From Lingula anatina (Eukaryota; Animalia; Brachiopoda), in NCBI GenBank assembly GCA_051362555.1, contig CM120649.1:12648001-12712000 (forward strand): a stretch of 64,000 nt of DNA, given 5' to 3'. How positions within the stretch are numbered: the stretch's first letter is position 1; each line of letters starts with the position of its first letter. Both the position numbers and the translations under genes were made by a program. Under the pieces are notes generated by a model. It saw only the letters and a program-made list of their open reading frames with translations, did not search any database and was not told the origin of the DNA. Positions 22,120-61,431 of the stretch are shown one piece after another.

Positions 22120-23121
22120 TTATGTCTGACAACAGCAGATTTTCTTCAATTCTTTTCTAAATAGAGACCCAAAGATGCCGTAGACAACAAAGTTTAATGA
22201 GGAGCTGATTGAATTGAACACCAAAACCCAGAATATAGCAACAGGAGACACACCGTGACCTATCTGCGGGAAAACATTTTTGATCTGCACTGCAACATGC
22301 AGTATAGTGTTAATCATCATTAATACTGCAATAATTATCACAATTTCCAACATTTCTCGGTGATGTTTTTTACGTTGTGCAACTTTAGCTGCATTGAGCG
22401 TGCTGGCGGGCAATATGGGATGTTGATAGAACAGTTTCTTGAAAGTCTTGACTGTGTAATACATAAACATCCCCACTGGCAGCAAAACAGTGACTTTGAT
22501 TTCTAAAACAATTCTGAATACAATCGAGTATATCTTCCAGTTTGGTCCCTGTTTTAGAATCATGGCTGGGCAGTGAGCTGCATCTTTGCACTCATCGATT
22601 TTCAAATGATCTATATCCGGCACCTTAAGAACATTGAATATTAGGAGCCCTGTGATCACCACAGATAGGGGGAACAGTTTTTCTTTTCTTGTCAGTGGTA
22701 TTTTGTTTTGTATATTGTAAAGTCTTTTGACAGAGCAGAAACGTTCTTGAGAGATGAGTGCAGCAATGTAGGTCTGTAATGTCATGAGGAAATAAACTGC
22801 AAACTGTAATCCACTTATGGTTATTAGCAATTTGGTATTTCTTACTTCCGCATAATAAAGGTAGATGGTTATAATGATAAATTGTAATGTGCGAAGAACT
22901 AGAAATAAATTGTCATTTATTGATAAACAAAAGAGAAGGTACGAAGTCTTGTTGTACTCGATGCTTTTGTAAAAAACAGCAAGCGCAAGAGAGTTCAGAG
23001 TTACTCCTACCACTGCACAGAGGAAAATTATGACATTTGCTATCCACAAATAATATTTGTACTCAGGGGCTATATCTAGCAGTTCGGTGCCGTTTGCCAA
23101 AGTTGCATTAAGTTCTGCCAT
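22120..23121 (-). CDS. Intronless class-A GPCR, FMRFamide-receptor/chemoreceptor-like
   Basis: 7 TM segments, N-terminal NAT/NGT glycosylation sites, LN (TM1), LSIND (TM2), ERF (TM3), LLP (TM5), NSISSSLNFVVY-x5-FR (TM7/H8) and a CCC palmitoylation cluster. First ATG at 23121; the ORF-track start is TTG. Confidence 0.88.
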   Translation of the reverse strand: MAELNATLANGTELLDIAPEYKYYLWIANVIIFLCAVVGVTLNSLALAVFYKSIEYNKTSYLLFCLSINDNLFLVLRTLQFIIITIYLYYAEVRNTKLLITISGLQFAVYFLMTLQTYIAALISQERFCSVKRLYNIQNKIPLTRKEKLFPLSVVITGLLIFNVLKVPDIDHLKIDECKDAAHCPAMILKQGPNWKIYSIVFRIVLEIKVTVLLPVGMFMYYTVKTFKKLFYQHPILPASTLNAAKVAQRKKHHREMLEIVIIIAVLMMINTILHVAVQIKNVFPQIGHGVSPVAIFWVLVFNSISSSLNFVVYGIFGSLFRKELKKICCCQT

Positions 23122-25394
23122 CTGTTCTGTCTCAGTTTGTCCTCTACACAATCTGAACAATTTTGTCGCTGTTCACCTGACTAGCACTTCATCAGAGATA
23201 AATTCATTCCTTATTCTTGAGGTATTTCTTGCCAACTCTTGCCAAATGTTCACTTTTACTCTGCTGTTCATAAGATGCTCCCTTCAGCTTCAAATAGCTT
23301 TTTAACTTTTTTTTATATATATGAATGTGATACGATATGCATATGATGATGCCTAAGTGTATTTGGTTAATACATATATATATAGCCACTGTACTTCACA
23401 TACTCTGTTTCTTTAAGTTTCTTTGTTTAATGTCATTGAACATAAAACTGGTCCACACCCATTATAAGTCTGGCTATAAGTCCGGTCTCGTCATGTCAAG
23501 TGTACCCAGTAGAAATTAACAGCTCTGCTTTGTCTCAACAATCTTTATTTCAGGACCAATAAAACCCAAACGTATAAAAAAATCTTTAAAATATGATTTT
23601 ATCTGTAAGTATTGTCTGGAACCCCACAAAATCCCTGCATATATAACTAATTAGGACAATATTTTTCAAACATTTGCCAATTTACATTTTTATTTTATGG
23701 TCAATTAGTTAAAGAAATTTCAATATAACTCTCACTGTGGTATAGCATAAATAAAATGGTCGTATATCAATCAACCTATGTTATTGTGTTTGTCAAGTTA
23801 TGCTATGAATTCGTTCTTAGATGGAGGAGGTATAAAAGAAAGACTAGCTTTCCCGATAACCTAAGGAGCGAACAGATGAATGAAAAGGGGGAATTACAGT
23901 GTCGACATACACTAAAAGGTTAATGATCGCACTGGCTTATACTAGCATAAAACGTTAATCAGTAAAAAAAACAACATTATTTTAAAAGAAGTATTGAAAT
24001 GACGAAGAAACCGAAAACTTAAGATGATCACTCACCAATTGCAATGCACACCTTCTCTGCAATTCAACATTCACCAGTTTCAGTATCTGACTAGGAATGC
24101 TCGTACAGCCATCGATATACTTTTGGTCAGGCATAGTTCTCACTTTATTATAACAACAACCACCCTATCACATGCCACGTATGCTCTCTACCATGGCCAC
24201 AGAATTGATTTTTCACTAGATATTTACAGGCATATCTCTAACTCATTGTTAACATTATTCTTTTCGTGCTAGACTATTGATACTGTAAGGTACTGAGTAA
24301 ATAATATCACTCAACTTTCCTCTTGTATATAGAGTTCACCACACAGATATCATACTGATTTGGGGAGATTGGAATGAAAAATGGATTTTCATTTTATATC
24401 TCTTGGCAGATAACCTGTTTTGTTAAATGCAGACACTGTATGTGTCTGTTAGTATACATTCTGATCACTGACTTTTACCCTTGGACTGCAAACCCATATT
24501 TTTGTTTTGCTTGGAATTTTATGAATGTTTTTTTTAAAGGTTAAATACAGTTTGTTTTAAAACCGATATAATGAGATAATATTGTCCAAAAGTTATTGAT
24601 TTTTGTGTTTTTATTTACGGACACAATATAGCGATCAGTCATGACTGTCGTTGCCGTCATTGCCGTGTATTTTTTTTCAGTGATAATTAATACATTAAGT
24701 GGAAAATAGGTAGAAACTTACAAGACTGACAAATGTTACTAAACTTTGCGCGCGCTGAATTCGAAGATCAGTTCGATATTCGATGTTATTCAATTTTTTG
24801 TTTCTTTTTTTCAGCATACATTGTGCTATAATATGCAATCCCTGATAACACAAAAAATGGAAAATGGTTTGACCTTTTTTGTAACTTAAGTGCCAAACTT
24901 TTTTTTATTTTACTTTAGATTTGCTGTGGGACATTTTATGTTAATAAGGCGGGTTCCTTTTAAAAATCAGTATCGATTTGTACTTTTAAGTTATTTTTGG
25001 CGTGTCTTGTTCTTTTTTTGTTTTTTTGTTTGTTTTTTTTTTTTTGTTTTGTTTTGTTTTTTTGGCATGTTTTTCGAATGAATGCAAATTTGTTTTATTT
25101 TGTTGAGCTGTCCGTGTGCAAAGTTGCCATTGTATTCACTTTTCAGCTATTACTCAATAATCATTTCTGGGAGTAGATAACAACTGTCATAATCATAGTA
25201 CCATTAACAGTTCCAATTTACCACAGACATTATCTAATACAAGCTGACAATAGTGTGGTTAGATGAGAAAATTAAGAAACCAAAAGTAGCCCTTTCTCCC
25301 CAGAAACGCTCATATGACGTCATCAGAAATGAGCATCCTTTTTTTTTAAGATAATCACTGTCCACGAACGTAATATTTATTATTATTATTATTA

Positions 25395-27918: not shown

Positions 27919-27990
27919 TCCGACGTGGTCTAGTGGCTAGGATATCTGGCTCTCACCCAGGTGGCCCGGGTTCGATTCCCGGCGTCGGAA
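27919..27990 (+). tRNA. tRNA-Glu (anticodon CTC)
   Basis: 72 nt. Acceptor stem TCCGACG/CGTCGGA plus discriminator A; A-box TGGTCTAGTGG; anticodon arm tctgg-CTCTCAC-ccagg; T-loop GGTTCGATTCCC; downstream oligo-T Pol III terminator. Confidence 0.95.
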
Positions 27991-29673: not shown

Positions 29674-30511
29674 ATGGAATCGAAGACGATAGCTGTTTTG
29701 GTCTTGTTGAGTTTGTGTGGTAAGTTTGTTTTCAATATTCAAATGCACAATGTTGAGGTCAAAACTACGTATTGAAGCTCTCTGGCATAATCCACTCCAT
29801 ATTCTACATCACATAATGCTATATTCGTTACGAACGCGTTTTCAAATGATGGCACTCTTGATCGACAGACGTGTAGACTATATGGGACATAATTGCTTAT
29901 ACCCCCTTTACACTGGACGGCGTCCTTTCTGCGACCATGAAATTTGGCATCGCTGTGGTCTTAATAAGGAGGCACGAGCATTAATTTTGTATCAGAATGA
30001 ATGCTCAATGATCGGCCAGTTGTCGGGACGTAAAGCATTATAATTTTTTAACTCTCAAATGGGGCCGTACTGCTGGACGCAGAAAGGACGCCGTCCAGTG
30101 TAAAGGGGGCTTTAATAATTGTGCGAAAGATTCAACATAACGTAATGCTGTCTACCACTTCCCCAGCCAGCCAGTTAGATTTGTTTCAGCGTGTACGCTA
30201 ATAATGGCGAAATACGTACAAATATGTGTATCAATAACGCTTTATAGCAGTTTCATTTCGAAGGACATCAGTCCACTCCTTCCCCAAAATTGTTGATAAA
30301 GTAATTTGTCATTTGCTGTAGTCCAATTACTTGGCGTGAGGATGTGAGCTGTAAGTAGCACGTAGGAGCTAAAACTGAAACTGTTTGTGTAAAAAAGAAG
30401 AACCACTGGTAAATATTTAAATAAAAAAGGACTATGGGACTAGGATTAGCATGAATGCTTGTTTTAGTGGTAGATAACTTTAATTTTTTTATTTTTTTCT
30501 TTTTCTTTCTT

Positions 30512-32295: not shown

Positions 32296-35054
32296 GAGTA
32301 AATTGGGTCGCAAACATTTAGCAAGCATGGTGTTTTATCACTGTGTAAAAGGCAGCGATCTAGGAAAGGATCGATATTAGTGAGTCACACTGAAGATATC
32401 AAACCTGTTCGTGCCTGATAAACATTCGAACCATCTAGATCGTAAGCCCATAAAAAGATTATCAAAGGGGAGAAAGTGGAGACCCCCCTTCTCGGCCCTG
32501 TGTTTGCCATTATCTGACCCACGTGTCAGCATCACACGTGACTTCATACGGAATGATATCACGTGGGAAAACTCGACCAACGCCACAATGAGATTATTTC
32601 ATACACTGAAGATTGTCTCTAAGCACAGCATAAATTTGATCAACTTGAGTGATTACCTACGAAAATGTAACATCTATCAGAAGTCGTTTTAGATGTTCGA
32701 GCTCGCTGCTGTTGTATATTGACTCCGACAGATTTTGTAACAGACAGCTACGTGTAGCTAGAACAGCTATTAGGGCCCCTAGTGGAACGAACTGAAGATC
32801 TGAATGTCCTGGTATACACTCACATAGTTAAAACCAAGTGGTAGGGAATGCCCCCCCCCCCCCCCCCCCGCACAAAAAATCTTTTTTTCCTTAAAAGGTT
32901 TAGAAATAAAGACACACAAAGTTAACACGTGTACAAAACGTTCCAAATTACTTTTTTATGAGCGACTCACCATTCTTTTTTGGCTTCATCTGAAAAAAAT
33001 TGGCATCACTCGTCATGAAAAGTAATTTTAACACATGTCGACTCTTTGTTTTATACATCTTTGTTATATTATAACTGTAGATTATTTTGTTTGTACTCTT
33101 TACCAGAGACCAAGAGAATGCAAAAATTCTTTTACGCTAGAAAAAAGCTAATTAACCAAAGGCAAAGCTGTGAATATCTGGTGAAAAATCAATCTGTGAC
33201 CCTGGTAGAGGATAATTTGTTTGTTTTTGTTATTTTACGTTCAATAACACAATAAACAGGAATAAACGCGTAGTTGTCCTAGTTAGGTTAATGAAAATCG
33301 GAAGACCATCACACCTAAAATTTTCTAAGACTTTTCAATTAATTAGACTGACCCAGGGGGTGATTCTAATCCCCTACTGTTTCCATTTTGTAACATTTCA
33401 TACGCTGTCCTCTTGACCTGAATAGATGCGCATTTTGTCAGTAGTACCTGATATTTTCCGTTCCATGATACAATCTTATTTTCTGCATTTAGGTGCTGTC
33501 ATGTGCCAAAACAACACCACCACAACGCAAGCACCAACAACGACCGTCATCATCACAACGGTGCCGACAACAACCGCCACAACACAACAAACAACAACAA
33601 CGTCAGCACAAACAACAACGACCGCACAGACAACGACGTCAGCACAAACAACAACGGCCGCACAAACAACAACGACCGCACAGACAACAACAACGTCAGC
33701 ACAAACAACAACGGCCGCACAGACAACGACAACAGCGGCAATAACAACCTCAAATACAACAGTGAATGGAACGACATCAGCAGCGGTGACGACGACAGCG
33801 ATGGCGTCAACGCAGGCACCAACAACGCAGCAACCCGACACTAAGTACGAGGTTATTGGGGAAAACGGCACGGTTTGCATCGTGGCCGAGATGCAGTTTG
33901 AGCTGGGCATTATGTATAATGTGACAACAGTACCAGATGAGGGAAATGCGGTAAATTACACAACTCATTTGTGTGTACAACTGGAGTATCTATTCGATGT
34001 GCACGAACTTGGCTGGATGGTGGTGGTGGTGGTGGGGGTGGGGTGTTGGGGGTTTGGGTTAAGTGAGAATATGCGGACAGCAGTGTCAGGACGCTATGTA
34101 TCACAGATAAGATGCAATTTTGAAATGAAAAATTCGATATATTTCGAAGCAGGTTTTTTTTTCTTTTTGAAAAACTAGGGCGTAGTTGAGGTACCAGTAG
34201 TATGTTATCGTAATTCAATCAACCTCTCTCTTATTAAAGGTAGAGGTGATGCTCTTGGAGGGGGGAGGGGGCACAATTGTTTTAATACTCAGATACAAAA
34301 TGCATGTTTTCGTTGGGTGGGAGGAATTTTAACCTGCGACGCATCCCCGTCTTACTTTCGATTTACTTCATCTTTGCTTTCTTCTCCAGCCTGCTCCAGA
34401 CCGTCTTTTGTTATTTTGTAATTTTTTAGTCACAAGCTCGGACAAATCCCCCTTAGTCACAAGAGAAAGTACTGGTTTAATTTGAAAAGCTACAGTATGA
34501 GAAAACTTAACAAAGAGTTTTGATCCCATCTCTTTCTTGTTTTTTGTTCCTTCTTGAATACGGGATAATCATAATTCTTAAAAACCGAACAATATGACTA
34601 TGATTTTTTTCAGCTTAATCTCCAAAAAATCACTGCAGCAAATATAACCGTCAATGGCTCCTGCAACGAAGGGGACACTACGCAGTATCTGTTGCTTGAA
34701 TTTAATGAGGGTATTAATGGGTCCTGGACATTAAACCTTACCTTTACAAACCAGGTAATTATGATAATGTTAATGTTTTATTATATGTCACCAACGAAAT
34801 ATTTTGATTTAGCTCGTTGGTGCAGTGGTGCAAGAAGAATCGCGGGAATTTCACTTCATGTATGACGAAAATAAACTTGTGAAAGGTTCCTTTTTATAAA
34901 TTAGTAAGTAAAAAAAATTAAAAAGACACGAAAAAGAAGTAAGAATAATGCACTATATGCATGATGCAATGCCCACATTTACCTTCAGAGATACCCCTCT
35001 CTATCACTGCCTCCCAGCACTTTCTCTCTCTTACACACGCACGAGGGACATGCA

Positions 35055-35104
<50 letters not shown>

Positions 35105-35439
35105 TACGCACGTATCTAAAGTAATGTTTCTTTTCAGGTTTCGTATGACGGTGTCACTGCTCAGGCTGCAACCTCCTACAAACTGGACAATATCGAACTA
35201 AGCTATGTGATAGATCCTTATTTTTTTAAAGATCCTGCAGTTGAAGACATAGGTGAGAAATCAAACATTTCCAGTTTTTTGTCTCTTCGCCTTAAAAGAA
35301 TGAAATATGTGTGATTACAGCTTTTTGAGAGTTCCATACCTTTTTTTCTCTCTTAAATAATGATAATTGAAAAATTTTGTTTGTATATATTTTTGGTAAT
35401 GTAATGTAATGCAGTGCAATGCAATATGTTGTATGTACC

Positions 35440-35486
<47 letters not shown>

Positions 35487-38400
35487 CTCGGTATGTATGT
35501 ATGCTATCATTTATCAATAAATAAATTTAATACTCTAATAGAATACATTCATTGATTATTATTTTTAATAATCGTTTCTTCATTAATCCATATACAATAT
35601 AATCAATAACGTAAGTTTATATATTTTTTTTTTTCAGACCAGAGACGCTCCGCAGAGTTCAAACCATCAGACAAGGAAGAAACCGCTGTCACCGTTAGCG
35701 CAGACCAATATTACACGTGTAGTGAAAATCTTACTCTTGGAGACACACACAGCACCTATATCACATTTATGCAACTAAAATTCCAAGCATTCCGAGACAC
35801 AAATGACACAGATTTTAAGGGAGGAGGTAATTATATATATATATGCATTTGGTAAATTATGAGAGGATGGTTCGATAGCTTTTAGTGGAAAAAAATGACG
35901 TGTTGGTGTTTCGATCTTGTCACATGATCTTGTTTCACCACCGTAGATGAAAACATCTGTGCGGCAATTGTTGTAACAAAGCCAGAAAGTGCAACATTTG
36001 AATTTCTTAATCATTCCTCAAATACTATATCAGTTGGTACTGCCTCACGCCCTGCGCGCCGCTACGTATGTACAGTAGCACTTTTACAAATTATTGGACG
36101 CATTATAGTTACGATAAAGCTCCCTATTGTCAAAATTTTCACTACTCACCAAATTAATAATTTTATTAAATATATCCGCATTTATTAAATTTTACTATTT
36201 ATATTTTATATATATTGTACAATCCAACCATATACATCATCATCATTATTATTACTGAACTCGGCTAGTGTAGACAGTTGTTCTTACCAAATACTGATGA
36301 AGAATCTGCGTTGGCACATTTATTTATTAAGTGTATTGTGTTCATAGCATTTTGAATCCAGCTGTATTGCTTGATTTCATGAAATGCTAGAGATATCACA
36401 CAGCAAAATTCAGATATTTATATTTCACAATCGTATGCAAATATCTCGACCAAAAATTCATTTCAAAATCGAGGTGGAGCAAAAATTTTTATAATTAAAA
36501 CCGTTTTCTGACGTAGTCAGCTTTCAGCTTGTACGGGGCCACTGTTTCCTAGTTTTACAGGATAACATTTTCAATATGGCCGTATTTGGTATTTACTTTC
36601 CAGGATTAAGTCCATACGACACCATTTCCAAACTTAAATAAATAGGCACGAACAACCAGCCACTCTGTTGCCATTGTAATTGCCAAATTGATAGTAGTGT
36701 TTTCCTTTGGTCATGTTTCCAGGTGTTTGTCCTAGCAACGCTATTTCCAAGCCTTATGTGATTTTCATTAGCAACGAGGCATTTTTATATTACTATGGTG
36801 ATTGCCATAGTTACATCAGTGTTCCCTATAATCATCTTTCCAGGTGTATGTCAAGACAACACCATCCCAATGTTCACACTATTTGCCTTAGAAACCAAGT
36901 ACTATGTCGCCATAGTGATTGCCACAGTGATAGCCGTGTTCCTTGTGGTCATTTTTGGTTCTTGTATTGTTAATCGTCATAGAAATGGGAGACAATTTGG
37001 ATATGAGACATTCTGAAATTGTACGTTTTATATATTGAAAACTGTCAGTGTCTAATCCCTGGAATCGTTTCACTGCGGGAAGGAGAATGTCAACTTGTAG
37101 TAAAAGAGAACCTGTAATATTGTAGATGATTTATCTGTATATAAAAGTGAAGTAGTGTTTAGATTGGCCATATTTGCTTTCTGTATTGGGAACAACTGTG
37201 TAGGCGTTTAATACTGGGTATTGTTGTTATTGTATAATTATAGATTACATGTGCTGAATGGAGTGTTCTTATAGGTCATGCTTATGTCATGTTTTTATAT
37301 TTGTTTATTTTCATTTTTTGTTATAAACCGTGGTAGCACGGTGTCCCTCCGGAACAACGAACAAAATGAGGCAATGCCAAACCACCTTTTCAATTCTGTG
37401 CTGTGAATATTAAAGAAAAAACCGTCCTTGTGTACGCCTATATTCTATATATTTTCTATGCCTGTGCCCCCCCCCCCCCCCCTCCAACCCCCCTCCTCCA
37501 TCCCGCGCCCCCATTAGCATATTGCTAATCCTGGATCAGTCAGTGCAGGGCAATGTGGAGTATATGAATAAAGTAGAAACAAGATTTTATATGTGGTTTG
37601 GTGAGATGCTGTTGGTTTTGGGTCGCTGCTGATCGGACTAAAGACTTACCGATTCCACATTAGATTGGAAGAGAAAAACACTACATGGAGCTGAATGTCC
37701 GCAAAGGGCCGCTTCCGTTTAACCCTTAGTGATATACTAGTAGGGGAGAGCGGGGTTGGTTGGAACAGTTTTCACCTTTTTTGCGATATCTCAGCAGTCA
37801 AAGCTTTGGGGACAAAAATAAAAAATCTGATAGGGGAAAATTATATGCCGCACTCATCTATGAAATAAAACATCAAGTAGGTCTTTTTATTTTAGAGTAA
37901 TAAATGCTCAAAGTTGCCTCCTAAAACGTTCCATCTCACCCCACCCGCGGGGTCAGTTGGAACAGGCAGTGGGGTGAGTTGGAACAAGAGGGCGAGTTGG
38001 AACGCTTGCATATAAATTCAAAGTATAATTCATTTTAAGAGTAGGATTATCTATATTTATTTCCCAACAAGTAAGTGTTACTTTGTATTCGTATCTCCAT
38101 AGTTTGTAAGCATTTTTTACGTTTACAATTTGCTTTCAAATAGTCTTTTCGATGTATAAACCATATCCAGTTACACTTCATTTCATAATGATAACAAAAG
38201 TGGTGTAGTTTAAGAGAAAAGAAATTGAACTCATATATCTCAACCTATTAACAACAGTATGTTAGACCTACAAATGAAAACTGTATCTCTTTCAACTCAA
38301 CAACTCAGAATCAAAATCGCAGTTCTGACATATACATGAACACTTGGTCAACCTTTGTACAGTCTTCATGTGACCACTTTAGACAAACAATGCATTTAAC

Positions 38401-41211
38401 CCATTTCTCTTTTGGTCGGCTGTTAATGAACGGCTCCCCACAAACCAGACATGGCCACTCTTCTTCTGACTCAGAATCGCTGGTCATCTTTGATATCCTT
38501 TTTCTTGATTTTCTCTATCGACTAGAAATCTTTAACTGTTTTTTATTTTTGTTGCGCTTGCCCTTTTTAATTTTGTTGGGCTTGGCCTGCATCGTTTTCT
38601 TCTTTTAATCTTTGGACTGCGACGGTGAGCCTTTGGAACCGGTCTAATTATTACTGGACTTGAGCTGTTTTGGGGTTTTCTTTAGTGCGCTTTAGTGTGC
38701 TGTAGCACCTCTTCCGGTGAGGGCAACTGAGATTTCAACTGAATCTTTGCCTAAGTTACGAGGTGAATGTTTGTCTTTTCTGGCGGATTTTGTACCCTCG
38801 TTCACTAAACATTAACAGCAACCCCCAATCCATTACACAAAGCATTTAAAACAATATCGGCAGAATTGGTGTTGTATAGTTTATCCATAACATAAGCTCT
38901 CAGCTAGAATATTTTCATTTTGCCGCGAAAAGCAGAGTAATAATCGACATTTCCTTCCACATCTAAAAGAAATTTATCGCAAAAAGCAACAGTGGGCATG
39001 CAGACCCCTATTCGACCAAACAGCTAGCAACTGCATTTAACAAGCAGTGACCATCCCCCCTTGTATCTTCTACACGCATGTACATTCCGACATCATGGAG
39101 ATGTTCTATCAGCTAGATTCCGTCTCCAGTTGGAGTTGTACTCGGTTACTACGTTACTACTCTCTTCAAAGTTGAAATTAAAATATTTAGAGAGGTTTAA
39201 AAAATGAAAAAACACCGTGCGGGGTGGGTTGGAACACCCCTGACAGTGTTCCAACTGGCCCCATGTCAAATGTCCCGACCAGCCCCCATGACGTCATGGC
39301 CTACTTATGACACTGTATTTCTTTAACACGTGGGAAGTGTTTAAAAAAAACAACATCTTTTTGAACATCAAGGTGATCCTTAACGCTATGCACAATTTCA
39401 GTGATATAACCCGCACGAAAACGCAGTAGATACTCCAGCGCAGTAGACTACTGCAATCATACTGCAAACATGCTTCAAATCTGCTTCGATGTGGGAGCTA
39501 ATTAGCATATTTGAAACATGCTTCTATCATGCTGCTAATCTACTGCATTAATGCTCCTCCTCTGTACAACCCTATGTAATTTTTGAAGTAGAATTGCAGT
39601 AGTCTATACTGCATTTCTACTGCAAATATGCTCCATACCACTACTGCGTAAATGCTTCTTTGCTACTTCGATACTACTGCATTTTCGTGCGGGAATCCTT
39701 ATACTTTAGTTTACAGCACGATGAATGTCAAAAATATGAAAACTTACTTCGAGTAGCGAAAATAAGTTTTTTTCGCATAAAACTTTTACTGCATTTTCGA
39801 AACTTCCACAAGTTTACCGGATGAATGACCATGCCCCGTGACATTTTTATGCTGAAGGAGCACATGATCGGTCTTGTGATTTAAGAAATAAAGCCAATGT
39901 TCCAACTTACCCGCGTTCCAACCCACCCCGCTCTCCCCTACTCACCAATCCCCCAGATATACTCTGGCTACCTCTGTGTATGAATCCCTAAGAGAAATAC
40001 TCTCGAATTTACCTTTGATCTAATCCACTAGCAACTAATTCATCTGTGCACCAATTAACCCCTGCCACCCCTACCCCCTCCATCTTTTTACTACTAACAA
40101 TTTACTAACCAATATTCCCCATTTCTGTTTTTGCAGAGGTAAAGTGCGACTCTTCTTCTACTGGTCCAAGTGGTCTGAAGGATTATGAAATAGCAATCAT
40201 AGTCATCGCATCCGTGCTGGCTGTTATCATTATTGTTACGGCTGTCGCCTGCTGCGCCCGTCGCAAAAGAAAAGATTATTCAAGCCTTTAAACTATTACA
40301 TGTGACTGAAAATGTACTGGTGTTGATAATTTAATAATCTTAATTTAAGAATCTTGTTTTCGACGCTTGAATAAGAATTTTTATTGTTTTTTTTTTTCGT
40401 GTGGATGTATTTTTTATAAATTCCCAGCTCACCTATATCCGGGGTTCTTCGAAGCACGCATCACTTTTACAAGTTAATGGATTTCAAGAAAGCATTTGAT
40501 TATGTGCATTGTAAAGTATTGTATCACAAACCCAAAAGAACAATCTACCAAAGTAATTATTAAAAGACAAAAATACTAATAGTATGATGAAATAACATTT
40601 TGAATCTTTCGTGAATGTGCATGTGCAATGTTCTCAAGTCATACTGACAAATCGGGCACTAACTGCATGGCTTGCTTAGACTGCATGGTAGAATGTATAT
40701 AACACGTGACAACATATTATCAACAGGTGGTTCTGCTTTCCAACAAAACCTGCATTCAGTATTCAAGATTGTAGGCCCTACAACTTTGAATATATACATG
40801 CAGTGAAAATGGATGAAGTTTTCCCCTAGTCACACAAAACTCCAGGCAACTCGCGGAACAGACTTACAACTTTCACCGAGAGAGGGACCAGTTTATTCAT
40901 CTATTTGCACTAGAGGTGGCAGCACCGTGTCAGGCATTCCCTGAGAAATTATATAACTTGAACTTATCATACAAACACGTACTGAAGGTGGCAGCACTGG
41001 AGGTGCCCAAGATAAGCTCCACCCTGCAAAACTGAATGACATGAATCCCACTTTCTTTGCAGAGGCTCAGTGTACGCCGAACTCTACAGGGGGGCTTACC
41101 AACGATCAGATTCTTGGAATTGCCCTGGGAGGCACCGCGGGGCTCATCGTTATAGTGTCAGTGCTCGCCTGTCTTATCAAGCCGCGGAGAAAGGGATACC
41201 AAGAAATGTGA
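29674..41211 (+). CDS. LAMP-family lysosome-associated membrane glycoprotein (signal peptide, Thr-rich mucin stalk, one LAMP domain, TM, YxxPhi tail) with three alternative terminal exons
   Basis: Common exons: 29674-29719 (signal peptide MESKTIAVLVLLSLCG), 33493-33950 (mucin plus GTVCIVAEM), 34614-34754 (VNGSC...WTLNLTF), 35138-35252 (YKLDNIELSY...FF) and 35638-35826 (YYTCS...LKFQAF...F). All introns are GT-AG with phases 1,0,0,1,1. Terminal exons A/B/C give 373/367/365 aa. Orthology to a specific vertebrate LAMP is not established. Confidence 0.9.
29901..30111. mobile_element. MITE family with CCCCTTTACACTGGAC TIRs, copy 3 (LAMP intron 1)
   Basis: ccccttta cactggacggcgtcctttctgcg ... cgcagaaaggacgccgtccagtgtaaagggg. 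Confidence 0.8.
32205..32293. repeat. (CT)n(CA)n compound microsatellite
   Basis: Read directly from the sequence. Confidence 0.95.
33585..33745 (+). repeat. Coding minisatellite (18/21-nt units encoding AQTTT(T)(S/A)) in the LAMP mucin stalk
   Basis: Repeated gcaca(a/g)acaac(a/g)ac units, all in frame. Confidence 0.85.
36595..36843 (+). pseudogene. Two decayed tandem copies of the 5' part of LAMP terminal exon A
   Basis: Units of about 120 bp, each opening with a tttccag|g acceptor and containing ca/ta-ct.tg..gccat.gt.attgcca...gtgtt...tcat similar to exon A. The copies are frameshifted or stopped and lack a YxxPhi tail. Confidence 0.65.
36844..37016 (+). CDS. LAMP alternative terminal exon A (tail NRHRNGRQFGYETF*)
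   Basis: ctttccag acceptor, phase 1. Translation: GVCQDNTIPMFTLFALETKYYVAIVIATVIAVFLVVIFGSCIVNRHRNGRQFGYETF*. AATAAA at 37567. Confidence 0.85.
37743..39938 (-). mobile_element. Decayed pogo/Tigger-like DNA transposon (~2.2 kb) between LAMP exons A and B
   Basis: TIRs GGGGAGAGCGGGG.TGG.TGGAAC / GTTCCAACCCACCCCGCTCTCCCC with a TA TSD. Minus-strand PHD-finger relic WPCLVCGEPF...WVKCIVCLKWSHEDC...(frameshift)CQNC at about 38310-38470. Confidence 0.85.
39410..39693. mobile_element. Nested non-autonomous element, CACTA/EnSpm-like (CCC...GGG ends)
   Basis: TIRs cccgcacgaaaa.gcagtag / ctactgcattttcgtgcggg, a 2-bp AA TSD, and internal tactgc/gcagta subrepeats. Confidence 0.7.
40137..40291 (+). CDS. 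LAMP alternative terminal exon B (tail ARRKRKDYSSL*)
   Basis: Two TACTAAC branch-point matches (about 40092 and 40103), a pyrimidine tract and a ttgcag acceptor, phase 1. Translation: EVKCDSSSTGPSGLKDYEIAIIVIASVLAVIIIVTAVACCARRKRKDYSSL*. Confidence 0.87.
40474..40530 (+). mobile_element. Tiny LINE reverse-transcriptase relic
   Basis: Translates to LMDFKKAFDYVHCKVLYHK, matching the DFxKAFD motif of non-LTR reverse transcriptases. Confidence 0.45.
41063..41211 (+). CDS. LAMP alternative terminal exon C (tail KPRRKGYQEM*)
   Basis: ctttctttgcag acceptor, phase 1. Translation: EAQCTPNSTGGLTNDQILGIALGGTAGLIVIVSVLACLIKPRRKGYQEM*. AATAAA at 42042. Confidence 0.88.
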
Positions 41212-44842: not shown

Positions 44843-44973
44843 CGGGCTGCTGAATCAACTCGAATCCTGACAACTGCGGAGGCCATCAAGCAGAAGGAGG
44901 CGGAGGCATAAAAACGCCTGGATGCCATCAGTGCCGCCAAGAAGGCCAAGCAGGAGGCTTTCGAGGCCAGGCA
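44843..44973 (+). pseudogene. Orphan copy of exon 4 of the duplicated 207-aa gene, with a premature stop
   Basis: Near-identical to 48266-48396, but the CAG codon is TAA, and the flanking acceptor and donor are absent. Confidence 0.85.
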
Positions 44974-45181: not shown

Positions 45182-45897
45182 TAATAATGCCCTCATTTAC
45201 TAAAGTGATTTGTACTTAATGATGGGAAATGAAATTGAATCTCATATTTACTGGGTCCTATGTTTTGAAATGGAGATCACGGCGTTTCGACCTTATTACA
45301 AGGCCTTCTTCGGGTCAACTGTTGTCACCCGTGTCACAAGCTGACACGTCTGCGCGGGATGTCTCCCAGAGCCCTGTCTCACCCCATGTGGTAGTTGTTA
45401 TCTCAGACTCAAGCCACTGTGTTTGCGAAGGTTGGTAAGTTTAATTGGCTCTTTTGTCAATTTTCATGTTCACATTAAACAAAAATGTAAACAAGTATAT
45501 TTATAATACTGTTATTATAATTTAGAATTGCTGAAAAAAATTTTTTTAGCGACCAATACGTTGTGATGTCATGTATACTTTTTAACGATTATTTTCAAAA
45601 GTAAAAAAAAAGAAAGAAAGAAAAAACTATCGCGAAGATGCTACAAAATAATGAGCATCAAGCATCTCTGTAATGATAATTGTTGATTTATTTAAGAGGA
45701 CAGAGAGACAACTATTACAGTATACGAATGCTTCGTTATGTATATTGCTTGACATTTTATATAAAAAGCATTTTGAATTCCTGCATGAAGCAATGAATTT
45801 AAGATAAAAACAAAAGAAGTGCCATATATATGGTGAATAATTGCATGTAAGAAACGTCCTTATTTAGCTATGATGTCCTAAACTTAAAACCGATGGC

Positions 45898-46184
45898 CAG
45901 GGGCGGATCCAGGATTATTTGAAGGGGGGGGGGGGGGGGGTGCGACAGGCCTCGGATGCGTAGCCGACTATAGCTCCCTTGGTGTGGGGTTCGGGGCCTG
46001 CTCAAAGGCCCCCAAAAAATTTGGTGTTTTGGAGAGTAAACAGTGCCCTTTGGTACGGTTTAGAACTATTTAGATAGTCAAAATTGTCATTTCAAGAGGG
46101 GAATATTGGTGTGATACATTTTTCAGAAACCAAAGGGGGGGGGGGGGTCAGGACCCTTCTGACTCCCCCCTAAATCCGCCACTA
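45898..46184. mobile_element. CAGGGGCGGAT-family MITE (duplicated at 52212-52467)
   Basis: caggggcggatccagg ... aatccgccacta; the ATGGT 5-bp TSD is perfect in copy 2. Confidence 0.8.
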
Positions 46185-46703
46185 ATGGTTAAGGGTGTAC
46201 ATTTAAAAGTTGTACAGTGAATATATTAAATGAAATCTATAAGACCCACCGAAAAAAAAATGAATTAAAAATAATGATAGCAGGTTGTATTGTTTTTCGT
46301 TAAACATTTCAATCATTAAAATAAGACATAAACCAGTCCAATAGGCCAAAAGCATCTAATGCTTAATGATCTAACTAATATCTCTATATGTACATTAGGA
46401 GAGGGACTCTATGAGGGAGAGTGAAAACAAAAAATTTGCCCACTAATTTTGAGAAAAGTCAACTTTACCAAAATTTTGGCACTCACTTCAACTGAATATA
46501 ATTCATTTCAGAGAATTTCATTCATAAAATTAAATGGATATGAACGCTAGACGTCAGCATGGAACGTTATATCTTTACATATGTCACGTGTATTAAATTT
46601 TATTTTTATTTATAAATGTTTTATTATTCGATTGGGAAAAACTCAGTTCGCCATGCAAAAGAAAAAAAAACGGAAAAGGGCCAATCATATTCGTTATACA
46701 CTG

Positions 46704-46711
46704 TGACGTCA
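46704..46711. promoter_or_regulatory. Palindromic CRE (TGACGTCA) about 130 bp upstream of the ATG; also at 52985-52992
   Basis: Perfect TGACGTCA, plus nearby half-sites (tgacgt, acgtca). Confidence 0.35.
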
Positions 46712-46839
46712 TAGTAGAAAATCCCATCATGACGTGCGCTTTCTATAGAAACGTCAACAGTCAGTAGACAACGAAGTACTCTATTGTACGGACGTGTTCA
46801 AATTGTTTCCACAAAAATCTGTCCATATAAAAGCTAAAT

Positions 46840-47745
46840 ATGTCTTGTATTCCAGGTTTAGGGACTGCTATTAGCGGAGCAATGAGACGGGCGAGAGGGA
46901 GATTCTCCAACGCTGCCTCCTTCATTAGAAACAGAATAAGAAGATCCGCAAGAGTTGGGGTTCATCCCAACCTGGAACCTGTACCATTGCCTCCAGTACC
47001 CAAGGCTTTGGTAATTAATGTATCTCATTTTATTTGCTTATTTTTGTCAAGATTTGACCACTCTGCGTGCTGCTGTTAACTGGTGACTTTTGAAAATATA
47101 ATCTTACATATATCTACACGTTTTTCAGATTTTGCATTTTTCAATAGATTTGAAGACATGCAATGCACATAGACCTCCTTGCGGCAGATACGCGACGTCA
47201 TGTTAACGTCACGACGTCATATTGACGTAGTAATGACGCTGTGTGTTTGCGGGACTCCGCGCCTCTTTCTGCCTCAAAGTCTACACTTATTGCAATATAT
47301 CTACTCTGTTCTGGAAATTGCGCAACTTTCAATATTTGTTTCCAATACCAAAACTATTCAAATTCCTTTGGTTCTCATTGCCTCTTCTTTTGATGGATAG
47401 GAATTTTATGATACTCCATAACTAAAGAAGAATCATCTAATGAAAAAAATATTTTTGGAATCTTGAAAGTTTGAAATGAAACCTTCAGCCGACAGTGAAT
47501 AAAGAGGTCTGTTTCTAAATAATCATATATTTTGATAATCAACGGATTTAAGAGTTATATTATTTTATTTTCAGTTGCCAACCCTGGATATCGGGTTAAA
47601 AATCAAAATGAGGCAAGCCAAACTCAAGCCTGTAGAAGGCCACAGCGGCCAAGCAGGACAAGCGTGGGTCCTGCAGGGGGCTAGGCCCAAAACTGCTAGG
47701 CCAAAGTAAGTGGAATGTTGCCTTGTGTATTCTCTTTCTCTCTCT

Positions 47746-47796
<51 letters not shown>

Positions 47797-48665
47797 TTAT
47801 TAAGAATTATCCACCTTTTACATAAGTCAAATTTGTATCTTTTTTTCCCTAGGATCAGCCGCCCCAAAACAGCTGCCAAATCAAGGGAGGACCTGGAAAA
47901 TGAAGATGCACTCAATCGCCGCCAAGAGGCAATGCGCCAAAGGGCAGCAGAACTGAAAAAAAGATATGCGACTGCTTCCTCAGTAAGTGCCGTTTCAATT
48001 ATAGTATGGATTTTACTTTAAAGTTTGGCTTCACGCGAGGTGGTCAATTCAAATGCTAGAGTTTATAAAATTGATTAGAATTGAAATAAGAAGACCAAAT
48101 ATATGGTCTCAGATTATGCTAATTCCTCGTATGTATTCGTGAGCTTTCCTTATCTACTAAATGATGAACTTCTCAGTTTCTTGCAGTTTTTAGAAAAGAA
48201 AATAATATTAGTACATCAGGTCTTGATAACTTTTTTCTTAATTTCAGGCAGTAAAACGCCGCGCCTGGGCCGCTGAATCAACTAGAATCCTGACAACTGC
48301 GGAGGCCATCAAGCAGAAGGAGGCGGAGGCACAGAAACGCCTGGATGCCATCCGTGCCGCCAAGAAGGCCAAGCAGGAGGCTTTCGAGGCAAGGCGTGTC
48401 AAGGTAATGTTTGTTATTTTTCTCATTGTAAAAACGCTCGACTTTAATTCTAGATAAAACATGAGTATATACTTAACCAATTGATACTGATTGAACAATT
48501 ATTAAAGGTAAAACTGACAATGCATTTGTCCGTCTTTTTTAAATTCTTTCATTTCTTGTTTATTAATGGAGCCTTCTATTCTTATCAGTTCATTTGTTTA
48601 CTTTTCATTTTTTATAAATCTTATTTCAGGTCCTGAAGAAGAAGGCCGAAACAACAACACAGTAA
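46840..48665 (+). CDS. 207-aa basic/coiled-coil protein, weakly stathmin-domain-like, copy 1 (5 exons)
   Basis: Exons 46840-47010, 47575-47705, 47853-47982, 48248-48403 and 48630-48665; GT-AG introns with phases 0,2,0,0; 624 nt open. Contains RPKTA twice, GQAWVL, and a C-terminal charged helix LTTAEAIKQKEAEAQKRLDAIRAAKKAKQEAFEARR. Confidence 0.8.
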
Positions 48666-49127
48666 TAGGCCTGAAACGCACAAAGCAATTTATGCACAGA
48701 CACATTGTGTCTGAGCATCTTCCATGTCTCCCTTTTGTTTTGTATTATAAATTCATTTTTTTTCTTGGAGTAGATTTAGTTTTTAATCAAAATCATTATT
48801 TTTTGTTTGGCCAGGGTGGGGTGAGAAGGGTTCAAATATTTTTTTTTGTTTTGATTCACTAAATTGAGTTTTGTGTCACAGTCAGTTTTCATGTTTTCGT
48901 GTTCAATTCACCATGCTTTTTTTTTTTTTTTAATTTTATATTTTCTTTGCTTTTCTTTTTTTTTCTTTTGACTTGGGGGGGGGGGGTGGGTTAGGGTGGG
49001 AGTATGAGATTTGCAAAGTTGGATACGATCCTCTGGCACACTGTAAAAAGTTGTAAGATCGGTAGTCCCTGGCGTGGATGAAATATGCCCGTAAACTTGC
49101 CAACTAAATCTCTGATTTTTTTTTCTG

Positions 49128-49265
49128 GGGTTTTTATAGGGTAAAGGGTTTATTGGTGGGTTTTTAAAGGGTAAAGGGCTTTTTGGTGTTTTTTTTATAA
49201 AGGGTAAGGGGTTTTTGGTGTTTTTTTTTACAGGGTAAGGGATTTTTGGTGATTATTATGGGGTA
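49128..49265. repeat. ~28-30-bp G/T-rich minisatellite (copy at 55395-55535)
   Basis: agggtaa(a/g)gg..ttt.ggtg..ttttt repeated about 5 times. Confidence 0.8.
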
Positions 49266-52200
49266 AAATATTCAACAGTGGCTTTATAATCAATTTGTAC
49301 TTTTTTTCTTTCAAATTTTACAGCATTTTTTTAATTCGTTTTTTGGGTCTGAAAAGTACATGCATGGTTTTCATATTTTGAATTATAATTTAATTATTGA
49401 CAAGCTAAAACTAAAACAATATTTCCCTTTGGGATGGGAAAGGTTTTCACTTTCTTTCATGTGTCTGTATATTTGACAGCCCTGCTGTGTAATGCCACCA
49501 TGTCTCAGTGATCGTGAAAGTTACACCATCAGGGGAGAGACATGAGAAGTCATTGTTCCACCATCTTGTGACTATGGCTGTTGAAGTTTTAAGCATTCCA
49601 CTCATTAGCAATAGTTAAAATATCGTAAATTGACGATCGACATATTTGTTTCTTTACCACATGGTTTGTTTCAATTTTGAACAAGAGGTTATCATTTGTA
49701 ATTTTCATGTTTTCATAAGCATTTTGAATTTTAAATCAAAATCTATATTCCCTGAGGGTTTTGGATGTTTTATATTTCATATATGTGTCTGCATTTTTGA
49801 CAGCTTTGGTGTAAAATGCTACCATGTTTCAATGATCCTGAAAATTACACCATCAGGGGAGAGACAAGAGAAGTCATCATACCACCATCTTGCAATTATG
49901 GCTGTTGATGTTCTAAACATTCTGTGTCTCAGTAGCAACAGCCAAATAAGAGAAAAAATCTTTTTAGCACATAGCACAGCTACTAAAATTGTTTTCAACA
50001 AAAATTTCAATATTTAAATGCAAAATCAATGTCTACATCTTTGTTCTACTAATTCATCTATACCATTTAAGATATGTTCCATAGTTCCTCTATAAAAATG
50101 TCAAAGGCATAAAAATAATATGTAAAAAGAAAAGCTTATCGCAAATTTTATATCAAGCATCACTGCATTTGTGCAGATAAAACTTAAATAAATACCTACA
50201 TTAGTAACATTCTTTGTCCTTAGTGAAATACATCTGTTTTAATGCGTTATAAGTAATGATTTTGGTTTATATTTTATCTTTGTGTATAATTGTTATAACT
50301 ATTTTAATTATTTTGGTAAGAGAAGTTTTTTGAAGTTATTATTGTATCAGGGAAAATTATTATCATTGTGAATTTTTTTTATTCAGATTTTGTGTATCCT
50401 ATGTTTAATCTCCAAGAAAATAAAATGCTAACATTGTGAGTGATAAACATTCCCTTACTTTGGTTGTCTTTCAACTTCAAACCGTGTTAGGGTTTATATT
50501 TTTTTATTCTTGAGTGTATCTTAACAATTTTCAAGCTCTTTGTAATTAAAATAATTGTATGAACACGCGCGCACACACACACCGACAGAGAGAGAGAATT
50601 GGATACTAGTAAGGAGCATCTACTTGTGCTATTGTGCACTCGTAAAGTATGCTAAAAATGTAAACAAAGAATTGTACAAATCAAAGAGACATGACATTGA
50701 ACAAAATATAAGAAATGTCAAACATCTTTGCTCTAATTTTGATTTACTTCAGCTTAAATTTCATACAAATAATTACATAGATACATATGGCCTTATATAA
50801 TGAAATGTATAGTAGTTTGCATCTCAATGTTAATATCTCTTAAACAAAAGAACAGTTGTTGCATAGCACAAAATTAGAAGCAGTACACAAAGTTCTCCCG
50901 ATTACAATTATATTTTACCTTTGATCGGAGGAAGAAATAAATAATTCCAGTGAAGCACATGATCTGTATCAATAAAAACAGAGAAGTAAAATGCACTTAA
51001 TAATATATATCATCCTGGTATATAAATGATATTATTTAATCTCCATAATTTAAGCTGATCATCAAAAATACTGCCTTGATCTACGATGTTGAGAACACAG
51101 CAAGAACACAAAATTGTGAAGCATAAAAAATTTGAATTTCTAATTGAACCAAGGCCAAAGTACTTACTTGACTGTTAGAGAGAAATTACTTGATCTTCAT
51201 GATATATAAATTGCCAAGTTTGTCACTGACTGGGAGGGAAAAAATGAACATATCTTTAAATGAACTAAATTCCCCAACATCACTTTTGCTTAAATCACCT
51301 TCAACTGATTTAAGAAATCTGCCTTTGCAAAATCCTGTAAGAATTTTTACCAACAGAATCTCAAGGGCTGCATTTTTCCTTAGTCCTGATTTGACGAAGT
51401 ATTAATAAAATTGCAGTTAAAAAACATCGAAAGCCCTCAAACTAGCCAACTCCTATTTTCAATATCTTATTTATACAACTTAAAGTTTCAGCGTCAATAT
51501 ATAGATCTGCAGCAGATGGCAAAATGTCTAACACAGAGACAACATAGAAGTAACTTAATGCCCGTGTTTCCATTCAAGTTGGATCTACCTATCTTGGTAC
51601 AGCCTATCTCAGCATGTTGTCTGCTTATCAAAAAATCATGTAAGGTTGTTAAAAAATGTTATCCACTCCACCTACAACCTTCATAAGGCAAGAAACTAGA
51701 CTGGCTCCCTGCAATAAATCATACTAATCCGACCCATTTCAAGCTAGTTTAACTCATTATCTCAAGATACTGTGTTTGTGAAGGTTGGTAAGTTTAATTG
51801 GCTTTTTTGTCTATTTTCATATTCACATTAAACAAAAATGTAAACAAGTATATTTATAATACTGTTATTATACTTTAGAATTGCTGAAAAGTTGTGATGT
51901 CATGTATACTTTTTAACGACTACGACTACGACCCAAATTTAAATATTTTCAAAAGTAAAAAAGAAAAGAAAGAAAGAAAAAACTATCGCGAAGATGCTAC
52001 AAAATAATGAGCATCAAACATCTCTGTAATGATATATACGAACGCTTCGTTATTTATATTGTTTGACATTTTATATAAAAAGCATTTTGAATTCCTGCAT
52101 GAAGCAATGAATTTAAGATAAAAACAAAAGAAGTGCCATATAAATGGTAAATAATTGCATGTAAGAAACGTCCTTATTTAGCTATGATGTCCTAAACTTA

Positions 52201-53119
52201 AAATCGATGGTCAGGGGCGGATCCAGGATTATTTGAAGGGGGGGGGGGGTGCGACAGGCCTCGGATGCGTAGCCGACTATCGGTGCCTTGGTGTGGGTTC
52301 TTGGCCTGCTCAAAGGCCCCGAAATATTTTGGTGTTTTGGAGAGTAAACAGTGCCCTTTGGCACGGTTTAGAACTATTTAGATAGTCAAAATTGTCATTT
52401 CAAGAGGGGAATATTGGTGTGATACATTTTTCAGGACCCTTCTGACCCCCATCTTAATCCGCCACTAATGGTTAAGGGTGTACATTTAAAAGTTGCACAG
52501 TGAATATATTTAATGAAATCTATAAGACCCACCGAAAAAAATGAATTAAAAATAATGATAGCAGGTTGTATTGTTTTTCGTTAAACATTTCAATCATTAA
52601 AATAAGACATAAACCAGTCCAATAGGCCAAAAGCATCTAATGCTTAATGATCTTACTAATATCTCTATATGTACATTAGGAGAGGGACTCTATGAGGGAG
52701 AGTAAAAACAGAAAATATGCCCACTAATTTTGAGAAAAGTCAACTTTACCAAAATTTTGGCATTCATTTCAACTGAATATAATTCATTTCAAAGAATTTC
52801 ATTCATAAAATTAAATGGATATGAACGCTAGATGTCAGCATGGTATGTTATATCTTTACATATTTCACGTGTATTAAATTTTATTTTTATTTATAAATGT
52901 TTCATTAATCTGATTGGGAAAAACTCAGTTTGCCATGCAAAAGAAAAAAAGCGGAATAGGGCCAATCATATTCGTTATACACTGTGACGTCATAGTAGAA
53001 AAGCCCATCATGACGTGCGCTTTCTATAGAAACGTCAACAGTCAGTAGACAATGGAGTACTCTATTGTACGGACGTTTTTAATTGTTTCCACAAAAATCT
53101 GTCCATATCAAAGTCAAAA

Positions 53120-54936
53120 ATGTCTTGCATTCCAGGTTTAGGGAATGCTATTAGCAGCGCAATGAGACGGGCGAGAGGAAGGCTTTCAAATGCTGCCTCC
53201 TTTATTAGAAACAGAATAAGAAGATCCGCAAGAGTTGGGGTTCATCCCAACGTGGAACCAGTACCTATGCCGCCAGTACCCAAGGCTTTGGTAATTAATG
53301 TATCTCATTTTATTTGCTTATTTTTGTCAAGATTTGACCACTCTGCGTAATGCTGTTAACTGGTGACTTTTGAAAATATAATCTTACATATATCTACACG
53401 TTTTTCAGATTTTGCATTTTTCAATAGATTTGAAGACATGCAATGCACATAGACCTCCTTGCGGCAGATACGCGACGTCATTTTAACGTCACGACGTCAT
53501 ATTGACGTAGTAATGACGCTGTGTGTTTGCGGGACTCCGCGCCTCTTTCTGCCTCAAAGTCTTCACTTATCGCAATATATCTACCCTGTTCTGGAAATTG
53601 CGCAACTTTCAATATTTGTTTCCAATACCAAAACTATTCAAATTCCTTTGGTTCTCATTGCCTCTTCTTTTGATGGATAGGAATTTTATGATACTCCATA
53701 GATCTAACTAAAGAAGAATCATCTAATGAAAAAAATATTTTTGGAATCTTGAAAGTTTGAAATGAAACCTTCAGCCGACAGTGAATAAAGAGGTCTGTTT
53801 CTAAATAATCATATATTTTGATAATCAACGGATTTAAGAGTTATATTATTTTATTTTCAGTTGCCAACCCTGGATATCGGGTTAAAAATCAAAATGAGGC
53901 AAGCCAAACTCAAGCCTGTAGAAGGCCACAGCGGCCAAGCAGGACAAGCGTGGGTCCTGCAGGGGGCTAGGCCCAAAACTGCTAGGCCAAAGTAAGTGGA
54001 ATGTTGCCTTGTGTATTCTCTTTCTCTCTCTCCTTCTCTCTCTCTCTCTCCCTCTTCTCACACACACACACTTATTAAGAATTATCCACTTTTTACATAA
54101 GTCAAATTTGTATCTTTTTTCCCTAGGATCAGCCGCCCCAAAACAGCTGCCAAATCAAGGGAGGACCTGGAAAATGAAGATGCACTCAATCGCCGCCAAG
54201 AGGCAATGCGCCAAAGGGCAGCAGAACTGAAAAAAAGATATGCGACTGCTTCCTCAGTAAGTGCCGTTTCAATTATAGTATGAATTTTACTTTAAAGTTT
54301 GGCTTCACGCGAGGTGGTCAATTCAAATGCTAGAGTTTATAAAAGTGATTAGAATTGAAATAAGGAGACCAAATATATGGTCTCAGATTATGCTAATTCC
54401 TCGTATGTATTCGTGAACTTTCCTTATCTACTAAATGATGAACTTCTCAGTTTCTTGCAGTTTTTAGAAATAAAATAATATTAGTACATCAGGTCTTGAT
54501 AACTTTTTTCTTAATTTCAGGCAGTAAAACGCCGCGCCTGGGCCGCTGAATCAACTAGAATCCTGACAACTGCGGAGGCCATCAAGCAGAAGGAGGCGGA
54601 GGCACAGAAACGCCTGGATGCCATCCGTGCCGCCAAGAAGGCCAAGCAGGAGGCTTTCGAGGCAAGGCGTGTCAAGGTAATGTTTGTTATTTTTCTCATT
54701 GTAAAAAGCTCGACTTAATTCTAGATAAAACATGAGTATATACTTAACCAATTGATACTGATTGAACAATTATTAAAGGTAAAACTGACAATGCATTTGT
54801 CCGTCTTTTATAAATTCTTTCATTTCTTGTTTATTAATGGAGCCTTCTATTCTTATCAGTTCATTTGTTTACTTTTCATTTTTTATAAATCTTATTTCAG
54901 GTCCTGAAGAAGAAGGCCGAAACAACAACACAGTAA
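53120..54936 (+). CDS. 207-aa basic/coiled-coil protein, copy 2 (5 exons)
   Basis: Exons 53120-53290, 53861-53991, 54127-54256, 54521-54676 and 54901-54936; same phases as copy 1, with an intact frame. Confidence 0.8.
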
Positions 54937-57900: not shown

Positions 57901-58289
57901 TGTAAGGTTGTTAAAAAATGTTATCCACTCCACCTACAACCTTCATAAGGCAAGAAACTAGACTGGCTCCCTGCAATAAATCATAGTAATCGGACCAATT
58001 TCAAGCTAGGTTAACTCATTTTGGATGGAAACATGGCATAAGAGACTCAGAATCTTCAAAATAAAGCAGTACTCATATTAGCCTTTTAAATGTTACAGCC
58101 AAACTTGAGTACAGGAGTTGAGAGAGGCACACGGAAAAGCTCTTACTGGGCACACACTGCAGCTATATCTATTTTTACTGTTTTTTACTGTTTACACCCA
58201 AGAGATTGTGTATATCTGTAAACATCTATCAAATTTCCTTTATATATATATCACATTTTACAAACACCTTAGACTTTTCATAAAGGTGG

Positions 58290-60446: not shown

Positions 60447-60484
<38 letters not shown>

Positions 60485-61394: not shown

Positions 61395-61431
<37 letters not shown>

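Follow-up and report, generated by a model that had tools for sequence, protein, structure and literature searches.

The DNA analysed here, referred to as the window, is a 64,000-nucleotide stretch of a Lingula anatina genome assembly. Its plus strand carries a gene made of five common coding exons followed by three candidate last exons, A, B and C, all separated by GT-AG introns (Table 1). When the exons are joined by script, the spliced frames are open and encode 373 (A), 367 (B) and 365 (C) residues. Each protein form begins with a hydrophobic leader, continues with a Thr-rich repeat and a four-Cys domain, and ends with a helix and a short tail. The signal peptide was judged by eye, and the junction between exons 1 and 2 lies outside the stretches compared with RNA. 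A preliminary description of this DNA had delimited the last common exon, with its phase-1 donor at 35826, and the three terminal exons; all four ranges proved exact. The layout it proposed, a mucin stretch joined to a single LAMP domain, is borne out by the Thr-rich repeat and the one four-Cys domain that follows it. It had also called the terminal exons mutually exclusive. In the terms of PMC8373072, that label strictly belongs to internal exons, and the three found here are alternative last exons.

Table 1. Exons of the Lingula LAMP-like gene and associated features (window coordinates)
Feature	Position	Strand	Description
Exon 1, coding part	29674..29719	+	Start codon and most of the signal-peptide-like hydrophobic stretch; phase 1 GT donor opens the frame of exon 2
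Exon 2	33493..33950	+	Thr-rich mucin repeat (~110 residues), then start of the LAMP domain with Cys144
Exon 3	34614..34754	+	LAMP domain, Cys185
Exon 4	35138..35252	+	LAMP domain
Exon 5 (last common exon)	35638..35826	+	Cys281; phase-1 GT donor
Decayed partial copy of tail A	36604..36722	+	Cys lost, stop after 11 codons; DNA local score 112 (random maximum 75)
Second decayed partial copy of tail A	36723..36843	+	Cys kept, frameshift before the helix; 72% over 54 nt; score 102
Tail exon A	36844..37016	+	Encodes the Cys, the helix and a cytosolic tail of 14 residues with GYETF at its end; hexamer at 37409 as candidate polyA signal
Decayed DNA transposon	37742..39938		Bounded by terminal inverted repeats and flanking TA; intronic, separating A from B
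Tail exon B	40137..40291	+	Cys, helix, 10-residue tail ending DYSSL; open frame; candidate hexamer at 40559
Tail exon C	41063..41211	+	Encodes the Cys, a helix containing two linked GxxxG motifs and a tail of 10 residues with GYQEM at its end; AATAAA at 41445

The window holds several further features. A tandem duplication at 45408-58020 (units of ~6.35 kb, 95% identity), which could be an assembly artefact, contains in each copy exon-like pieces of a small Lys/Ala/Arg-rich gene, a third fragment of which lies at 44844-44972. We also noted a CARD-domain exon (4639-5040), a Ras-family exon (10296-10679), a weak paired-box-like match that may be a transposase remnant (17446-17874) and a tRNA-Glu gene (27919-27990). 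An intronless receptor-like frame on the minus strand (22123-23172) appears seven-helical by eye and has no Pfam match at E 0.01. The transposon between A and B is presumably pogo-like with a PHD-finger-like remnant, as judged by eye; inside it, at about 39408-39693, lies another repeat that is heavily transcribed. On the minus strand at 58293-61400 a WD40 gene was recognized with Pfam; we take it to resemble WDR44, an identity for which a PDB search gave no confirmation. Human WDR44 lies about 2 Mb from LAMP2, and an old linkage between LAMP and WDR44 is possible. Human LAMP2 itself is placed at chrX 120.4 Mb in PMC8373072.

An intronless receptor (GPCR) gene on the minus strand at 100-1233, in a frame running to 1269, is 83% identical (310/375 columns) to a Lingula anatina protein. 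It has three matches in all, the second from Lingula at 31%; the third, a fish opsin, reaches 30% identity and spans 38% of the query. By this gene the host is probably a lingulid brachiopod and not a vertebrate, and the reading of the gene as an ordinary vertebrate LAMP2, which the preliminary description had kept in view, was rejected on the Lingula host and the single luminal domain. Populations named Lingula anatina are reported as diverged (PMC8146825). Judging from the sequence of this one gene, the window likely derives from a lineage distinct from the reference Lingula anatina.

Searches for LAMP similarity used single exons (38-62 residues) as queries. The 38 residues encoded by the end of exon 2 match positions 5-31 of PF01299, the sole Pfam family retrieved (E 0.012; 15.9 bits for a cut-off of 27.2), and the same residues recovered only two chains, both of LAMP1, from 177,635 PDB sequences (E 0.023 and 0.26). 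Exons 3, 4 and 5, short when taken singly, gave no LAMP match in profile and PDB searches. Single tails matched generic helix families only in Pfam, and a tail profile retrieved 17 generic helix matches and no LAMP from PDB. LAMP domains in general fold as a beta-prism. By eye, the contexts of Cys 144, 185, 281 and 319/320 match those of the second domain of human LAMP2, including G-S-C and Q-x-F. The 12 N-glycosylation sequons, the Thr-rich repeat, the one helix and the tail of 10-14 residues form the layout of a glycosylated type I membrane protein. These similarities make it very likely that the gene belongs to the LAMP family. Relatives were sought with exon 5 (0 of 7 candidates) and with an alignment of the three tails (0 of 3253), both of them short and weak queries. 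A HMMER library search with exon 5 returned two matches, both insect GYR-repeat proteins, which we rejected as summed repeat noise, and the ESM Atlas gave only matches below 0.9 for this exon.

CD68 (macrosialin) and LAMP3 (DC-LAMP) also combine a mucin stretch with a single four-Cys LAMP domain. The Lingula gene shares with them this layout and a restricted expression; unlike it, they are not known to have more than a single tail exon. Four Cys are reported for fish LAMP3 as well (PMC11026864). The mucin and single-domain layout of the Lingula gene may be independent of that of CD68 and LAMP3.

The three tail exons share a common set of features. Each encodes a Cys and then a stretch of 23-24 residues without charge, whose ends are placed to within 1-2 residues; 4-5 basic residues come next, and a Y-x-x-hydrophobic motif closes the frame just ahead of the stop. 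A further Cys marks the cytosolic end of each helix, and the Tyr stands 6 residues from the helix in B and C and 10 residues from it in A. The C-terminal signal of LAMPs is given as G-Y-X-X-hydrophobic in PMC2136218; this form is present in A and C. The content announced for the tails, namely Cys, helix, basic residues and YxxPhi, was thus recovered in all three; the residue before the Tyr is an Asp and not a Gly in B (D-Y-S-S-L). Each exon is preceded by an acceptor with a pyrimidine tract and AG; ranked by pyrimidine richness among 135 yAG sites, that of B comes first and those of A and C fall within the top 11.

To judge how often such a tail arises by chance, we scanned for a helix followed by a terminal YxxPhi and a stop. 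In the window, 4 matches fall on the plus strand and 3 on the minus; the rate in 60 simulated sequences was 0.63 per 64-kb strand. Tails A, B and C account for three of the four plus-strand matches and span no more than 5.4 kb; for a stretch of this size our own arithmetic predicts about 0.05, a figure that precedes the requirement for correct phase and Cys. The remaining plus-strand match, at 26217, was rejected as a tail because it is upstream of the gene and, by eye, has no Cys near an acceptor. Neither the motif scan nor the exon search found a fourth intact tail within the window. A second LAMP gene as owner of the extra tails was also rejected, since no other LAMP-like luminal exons are present within the window.

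Expression of the gene was examined in six of the nine species-labelled RNA runs (X1-X4, X6 and X7), about 6% of each being sampled, 25% for X7. The gene is covered on the sense strand in three of the six, X1, X2 and X3, all from study P1, and no coverage of it was found in X4, X6 and X7. In the expressing runs the common junctions are supported by 11, 9 and 16 reads (exons 2-3), 10, 17 and 9 reads (exons 3-4) and 8, 16 and 9 reads (exons 4-5). The junction from exon 5 to C is represented by 30, 47 and 27 reads in X3, X2 and X1, that is 104 in total, or by 15 and 29 reads at a stricter setting. It was aligned as 35822 to 41061 plus two letters, which corresponds to 35826 to 41063, the donors differing at two bases. 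Two reads join exon 5 to A; among the junctions listed they occur in X1 only and possibly stem from one molecule. The sense depth over A is 5.3, 11.9 and 7.3, compared with 1.4, 1.0 and 0.6 in the bin before, and it predicts far more junction reads than those listed. This coverage starts at the acceptor of A and falls near the hexamer at 37409, while that of C falls past the bin ending at 41428. For the polyA signals that had been assigned downstream of the tails, a drop in RNA depth is seen with C (after 41445) and A (after 37409). Hexamers by themselves are weak evidence: 27 AATAAA or ATTAAA occur between 35827 and 46000, of which 4 are in the 1-kb intron preceding A. C is thus the major form and A a minor form, and transcription is not confined to a single tail junction in these three runs.

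Of the junctions proposed in the preliminary description, those from exon 5 to C and to A were recovered; none to B is among those listed in the three expressing runs. The depth over B (0.15, 0.81 and 0.02) is comparable with that of the intron at 35853-36104. A sense depth of 2-6 was observed on both flanks of B (39885-40136 and 40641-41062), with almost none over 40137-40640. This pattern may reflect a long UTR of A, an unspliced last intron or a haplotype without B.

The relationships between the tails were then used to estimate how long they have been maintained. Pairwise identities are 16/58, 9/57 and 16/50 residues. At the DNA level, the likeness of the other tails to A gives scores of 70 and 63; some 500 random windows had a 99th percentile of 69 and did not exceed 75. 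As this likeness is within the random range, the duplications are either old or fast-diverging. In neutral simulations with 30% substitution, 2, 4 and 0 of 4000 copies retained the Cys, the helix and the terminal signal; at 5% substitution, about a quarter of the copies were still intact. The simulations thus imply long selection and are still compatible with a recent loss. In tail A, 3 of the 4 listed differences from the RNA donors are synonymous (p 0.04).

Two decayed partial copies of A stand head to tail immediately before it, and the end of the second supplies the acceptor of tail A (Table 1). They show that exon A has been duplicated locally and that unused copies decay. If spliced (36723-36973), the nearer copy would keep the fourth Cys and encode an 83-residue tail without a helix, possibly giving a secreted form; no junction to it is among those listed. 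On this basis A and B might be seen as side effects of a stretch prone to duplication, no role of theirs being under selection, and the coverage of A as unspliced or read-through RNA. The two dead copies adjoining A and the deficit of A junction reads relative to depth agree with such a view. We nevertheless hold it to be highly improbable, because all features have been kept over a long divergence, the changes in A are biased towards silent ones and coverage starts sharply at its acceptor.

A more substantial alternative concerns B. Only C, perhaps with A, would be used today, B being recently silenced or limited to some haplotypes, and the switch would be two-way or polymorphic. The absence of a listed junction and the dip in depth between covered flanks are as if the donors lacked B or carried a diverged version of it; other parts of the gene differ strongly between the donor allele and the window, and a quarter or so of the copies simulated at 5% change kept their features. 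On the other hand, B has the strongest acceptor of all candidates together with every coding feature, and the expressing runs belong to a single study sampled at about 6% of each run. We find this alternative rather unlikely and consider that B is likely used in other tissues or alleles.

Vertebrate LAMP2 offers the closest comparison. Its isoforms 2A, 2B and 2C are reported to derive from three versions of exon 9 (PMC10549195, PMC9221867, PMC8373072), and in the list of PMC8373072 only two other human genes have three 3' exons that can replace one another. The Lingula gene likewise ends in three alternative exons, all of which encode the final luminal Cys, a helix and a Tyr-based tail. The phase-1 intron is at the same place before the fourth Cys: the human alternative exons measure 137-140 nt, start in phase 1 and have the Cys as third whole codon, according to PMC8373072, an arrangement reproduced exactly in B and C and one codon shorter in A. 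The end motifs also echo the human set, GYETF being close to GYEQF, B ending in Leu, and C containing GYQ and G-x-A-L-G.

The two genes differ in several respects. The Lingula gene has one LAMP domain with four Cys and a mucin stretch, whereas LAMP2 is described as having two domains and eight Cys (PMC11026864). Its tails are 16-32% identical, compared with 22/45 residues for human 2A and 2B by eye. Pro-x-x-Val-Gly and Tyr-x-Ile-Gly are common to all three human exons and, by eye, absent from all three Lingula tails, which have a juxtamembrane Cys in place of Tyr-x-Ile-Gly. One Lingula tail is without the Gly and one is longer; the host is a protostome, and the gene is silent in 3 of the 6 runs. 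Ordered by nearest end motif, the exons follow each other as A-B-C in Lingula and as B-A-C in human.

These comparisons bear on the origin of the tails. The preliminary description had offered either an independent triplication or an older origin of tail switching, and had taken the LAMP2 triplication as vertebrate-specific. The latter view is that of two reviews, in which the origin of LAMP2 is put later than the second genome duplication of vertebrates and no counterpart in invertebrates is reported (PMC9221867, PMC10549195). It is weakened by one supplement row in PMC8373072: of the 236 human duplicated-exon swaps given there, 21 are dated to Bilateria, and the two LAMP2 events are placed at Vertebrata and, for one exon pair, at Chordata. 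A multi-tail LAMP gene could predate the protostome-deuterostome split and have been retained both here and in LAMP2. The dates of the human swaps, the shared phase and position of the intron before the fourth Cys and the echo of the end motifs would all fit such an ancestry. It is at odds with the different exon order and luminal layout, with the dating given by the reviews and with the duplication still ongoing locally. Moreover, the three tails of each species share their own diagnostic residues, which favours separate duplications in each lineage. We therefore regard an ancestral switch as improbable and favour, of the two origins, the independent triplication; on the residues compared, the likeness to LAMP2 is probably convergent.

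Parallel origin would be easy, because the last LAMP intron is located just before the fourth Cys and a copy of the last exon is thus a ready-made swap module. Recurrent tandem duplication of one exon in separate lineages is a reported pattern (PMC3342872), for which Dscam and ACOX1 provide examples, and no LAMP case was found in the accessible parts of these sources (PMC3342872, PMC8373072). No invertebrate LAMP with alternative tails was found in the literature searched, which mostly excludes subscription papers, and annotated isoforms that passed unremarked are possible. To judge from this literature, a LAMP2-like design with three tails is new for a protostome; in the RNA examined here, splicing to two of them was seen.

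We compared the tails with the features of LAMP2A. In PMC10549195, the receptor of chaperone-mediated autophagy is characterized by a GxxxG motif in the helix and a G-x6-G basic tail with a GYEQF-like end. The full set is present in no Lingula tail: C has the glycine zipper but is without the upstream Gly and ends GYQEM, and A ends GYETF but its helix is without GxxxG. A role in chaperone-mediated autophagy is thus not supported. In C. elegans, LMP-1 is reported as necessary for KFERQ-selective autophagy (PMC12404552); the LAMPs of this animal have different tails too, but on separate genes and not as alternative exons.

The RNA donors of P1 carry a strongly diverged allele of the luminal part. 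In the LAMP-domain exons (33837-35826) they differ from the window at no fewer than 43 positions in 559 nt, that is at least 8% of sites, and also show two replaced stretches at exon ends. The listed differences in these exons give pS 0.088 and pN 0.074, a ratio of 0.84, all lower bounds drawn from the best 40 of 275 and 40 of 137 rows. Cys 144, 185 and 281 are untouched by the allele changes listed. Among the rows listed, tail C has no coding difference and two in the nearby UTR. Some reads of X3, about 4 in 50, have yet another variant. These data agree with an allele that separated long ago, in a luminal domain that is either weakly constrained or diversifying; the divergence may also come from a converted paralogue or a sister lineage, and balancing or diversifying selection on the LAMP-domain exons is possible. 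A more ambitious reading would combine tails inherited from the bilaterian ancestor, a division of LAMP work among the tails of a protostome, a LAMP2A-like substrate-docking function for the GYETF tail and a luminal domain made hypervariable by balancing selection. We give this combination little credence.

Our preferred reading, which we hold to be reasonably probable, is that of a mucin-plus-LAMP gene in which exon 5 is spliced mostly to C, a little to A and likely to B elsewhere, and in which a three-way tail switch, likely produced in this lineage when the last exon was duplicated in tandem, is predicted to set the share of the protein between lysosome and surface. The choice of last exon would result from competition among the three acceptors, coupled to cleavage at the polyA site of each exon. 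The luminal part would be constant while linker, helix and tail are exchanged. The Gly before the Tyr has a role in LAMP routing. The ordinary lysosomal form would be C, which has a glycine zipper and places its Gly-Tyr signal at 6 residues from the helix; A, with its Tyr 10 residues out and a Phe end, would recycle via the surface and early endosomes; and B, without this Gly, would follow an indirect route via the surface. By analogy, LAMP1 with its Tyr motif shifted by minus one or plus five residues is reported to be trapped in a surface-endosome cycle (PMC2199866), and LAMP2 tails to set surface and lysosome levels, largely by the last residue (PMC2136218). The Lingula tails would thus likely tune the location of the protein between lysosome and surface.

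The marked divergence of the luminal allele suggests that this part of the protein might face ligands or pathogens. The locus also displays the steps by which such tails originate side by side: old copies that are intact, one copy in major use and two recent ones that have died. Two reviews regard chaperone-mediated autophagy as confined to vertebrates and give the three tails of LAMP2 as the reason (PMC9221867, PMC10549195). A protostome with this design would be an independent replicate, in which it may be asked whether tail switching serves mainly to tune location between lysosome and surface or extends to LAMP2A-like functions too.
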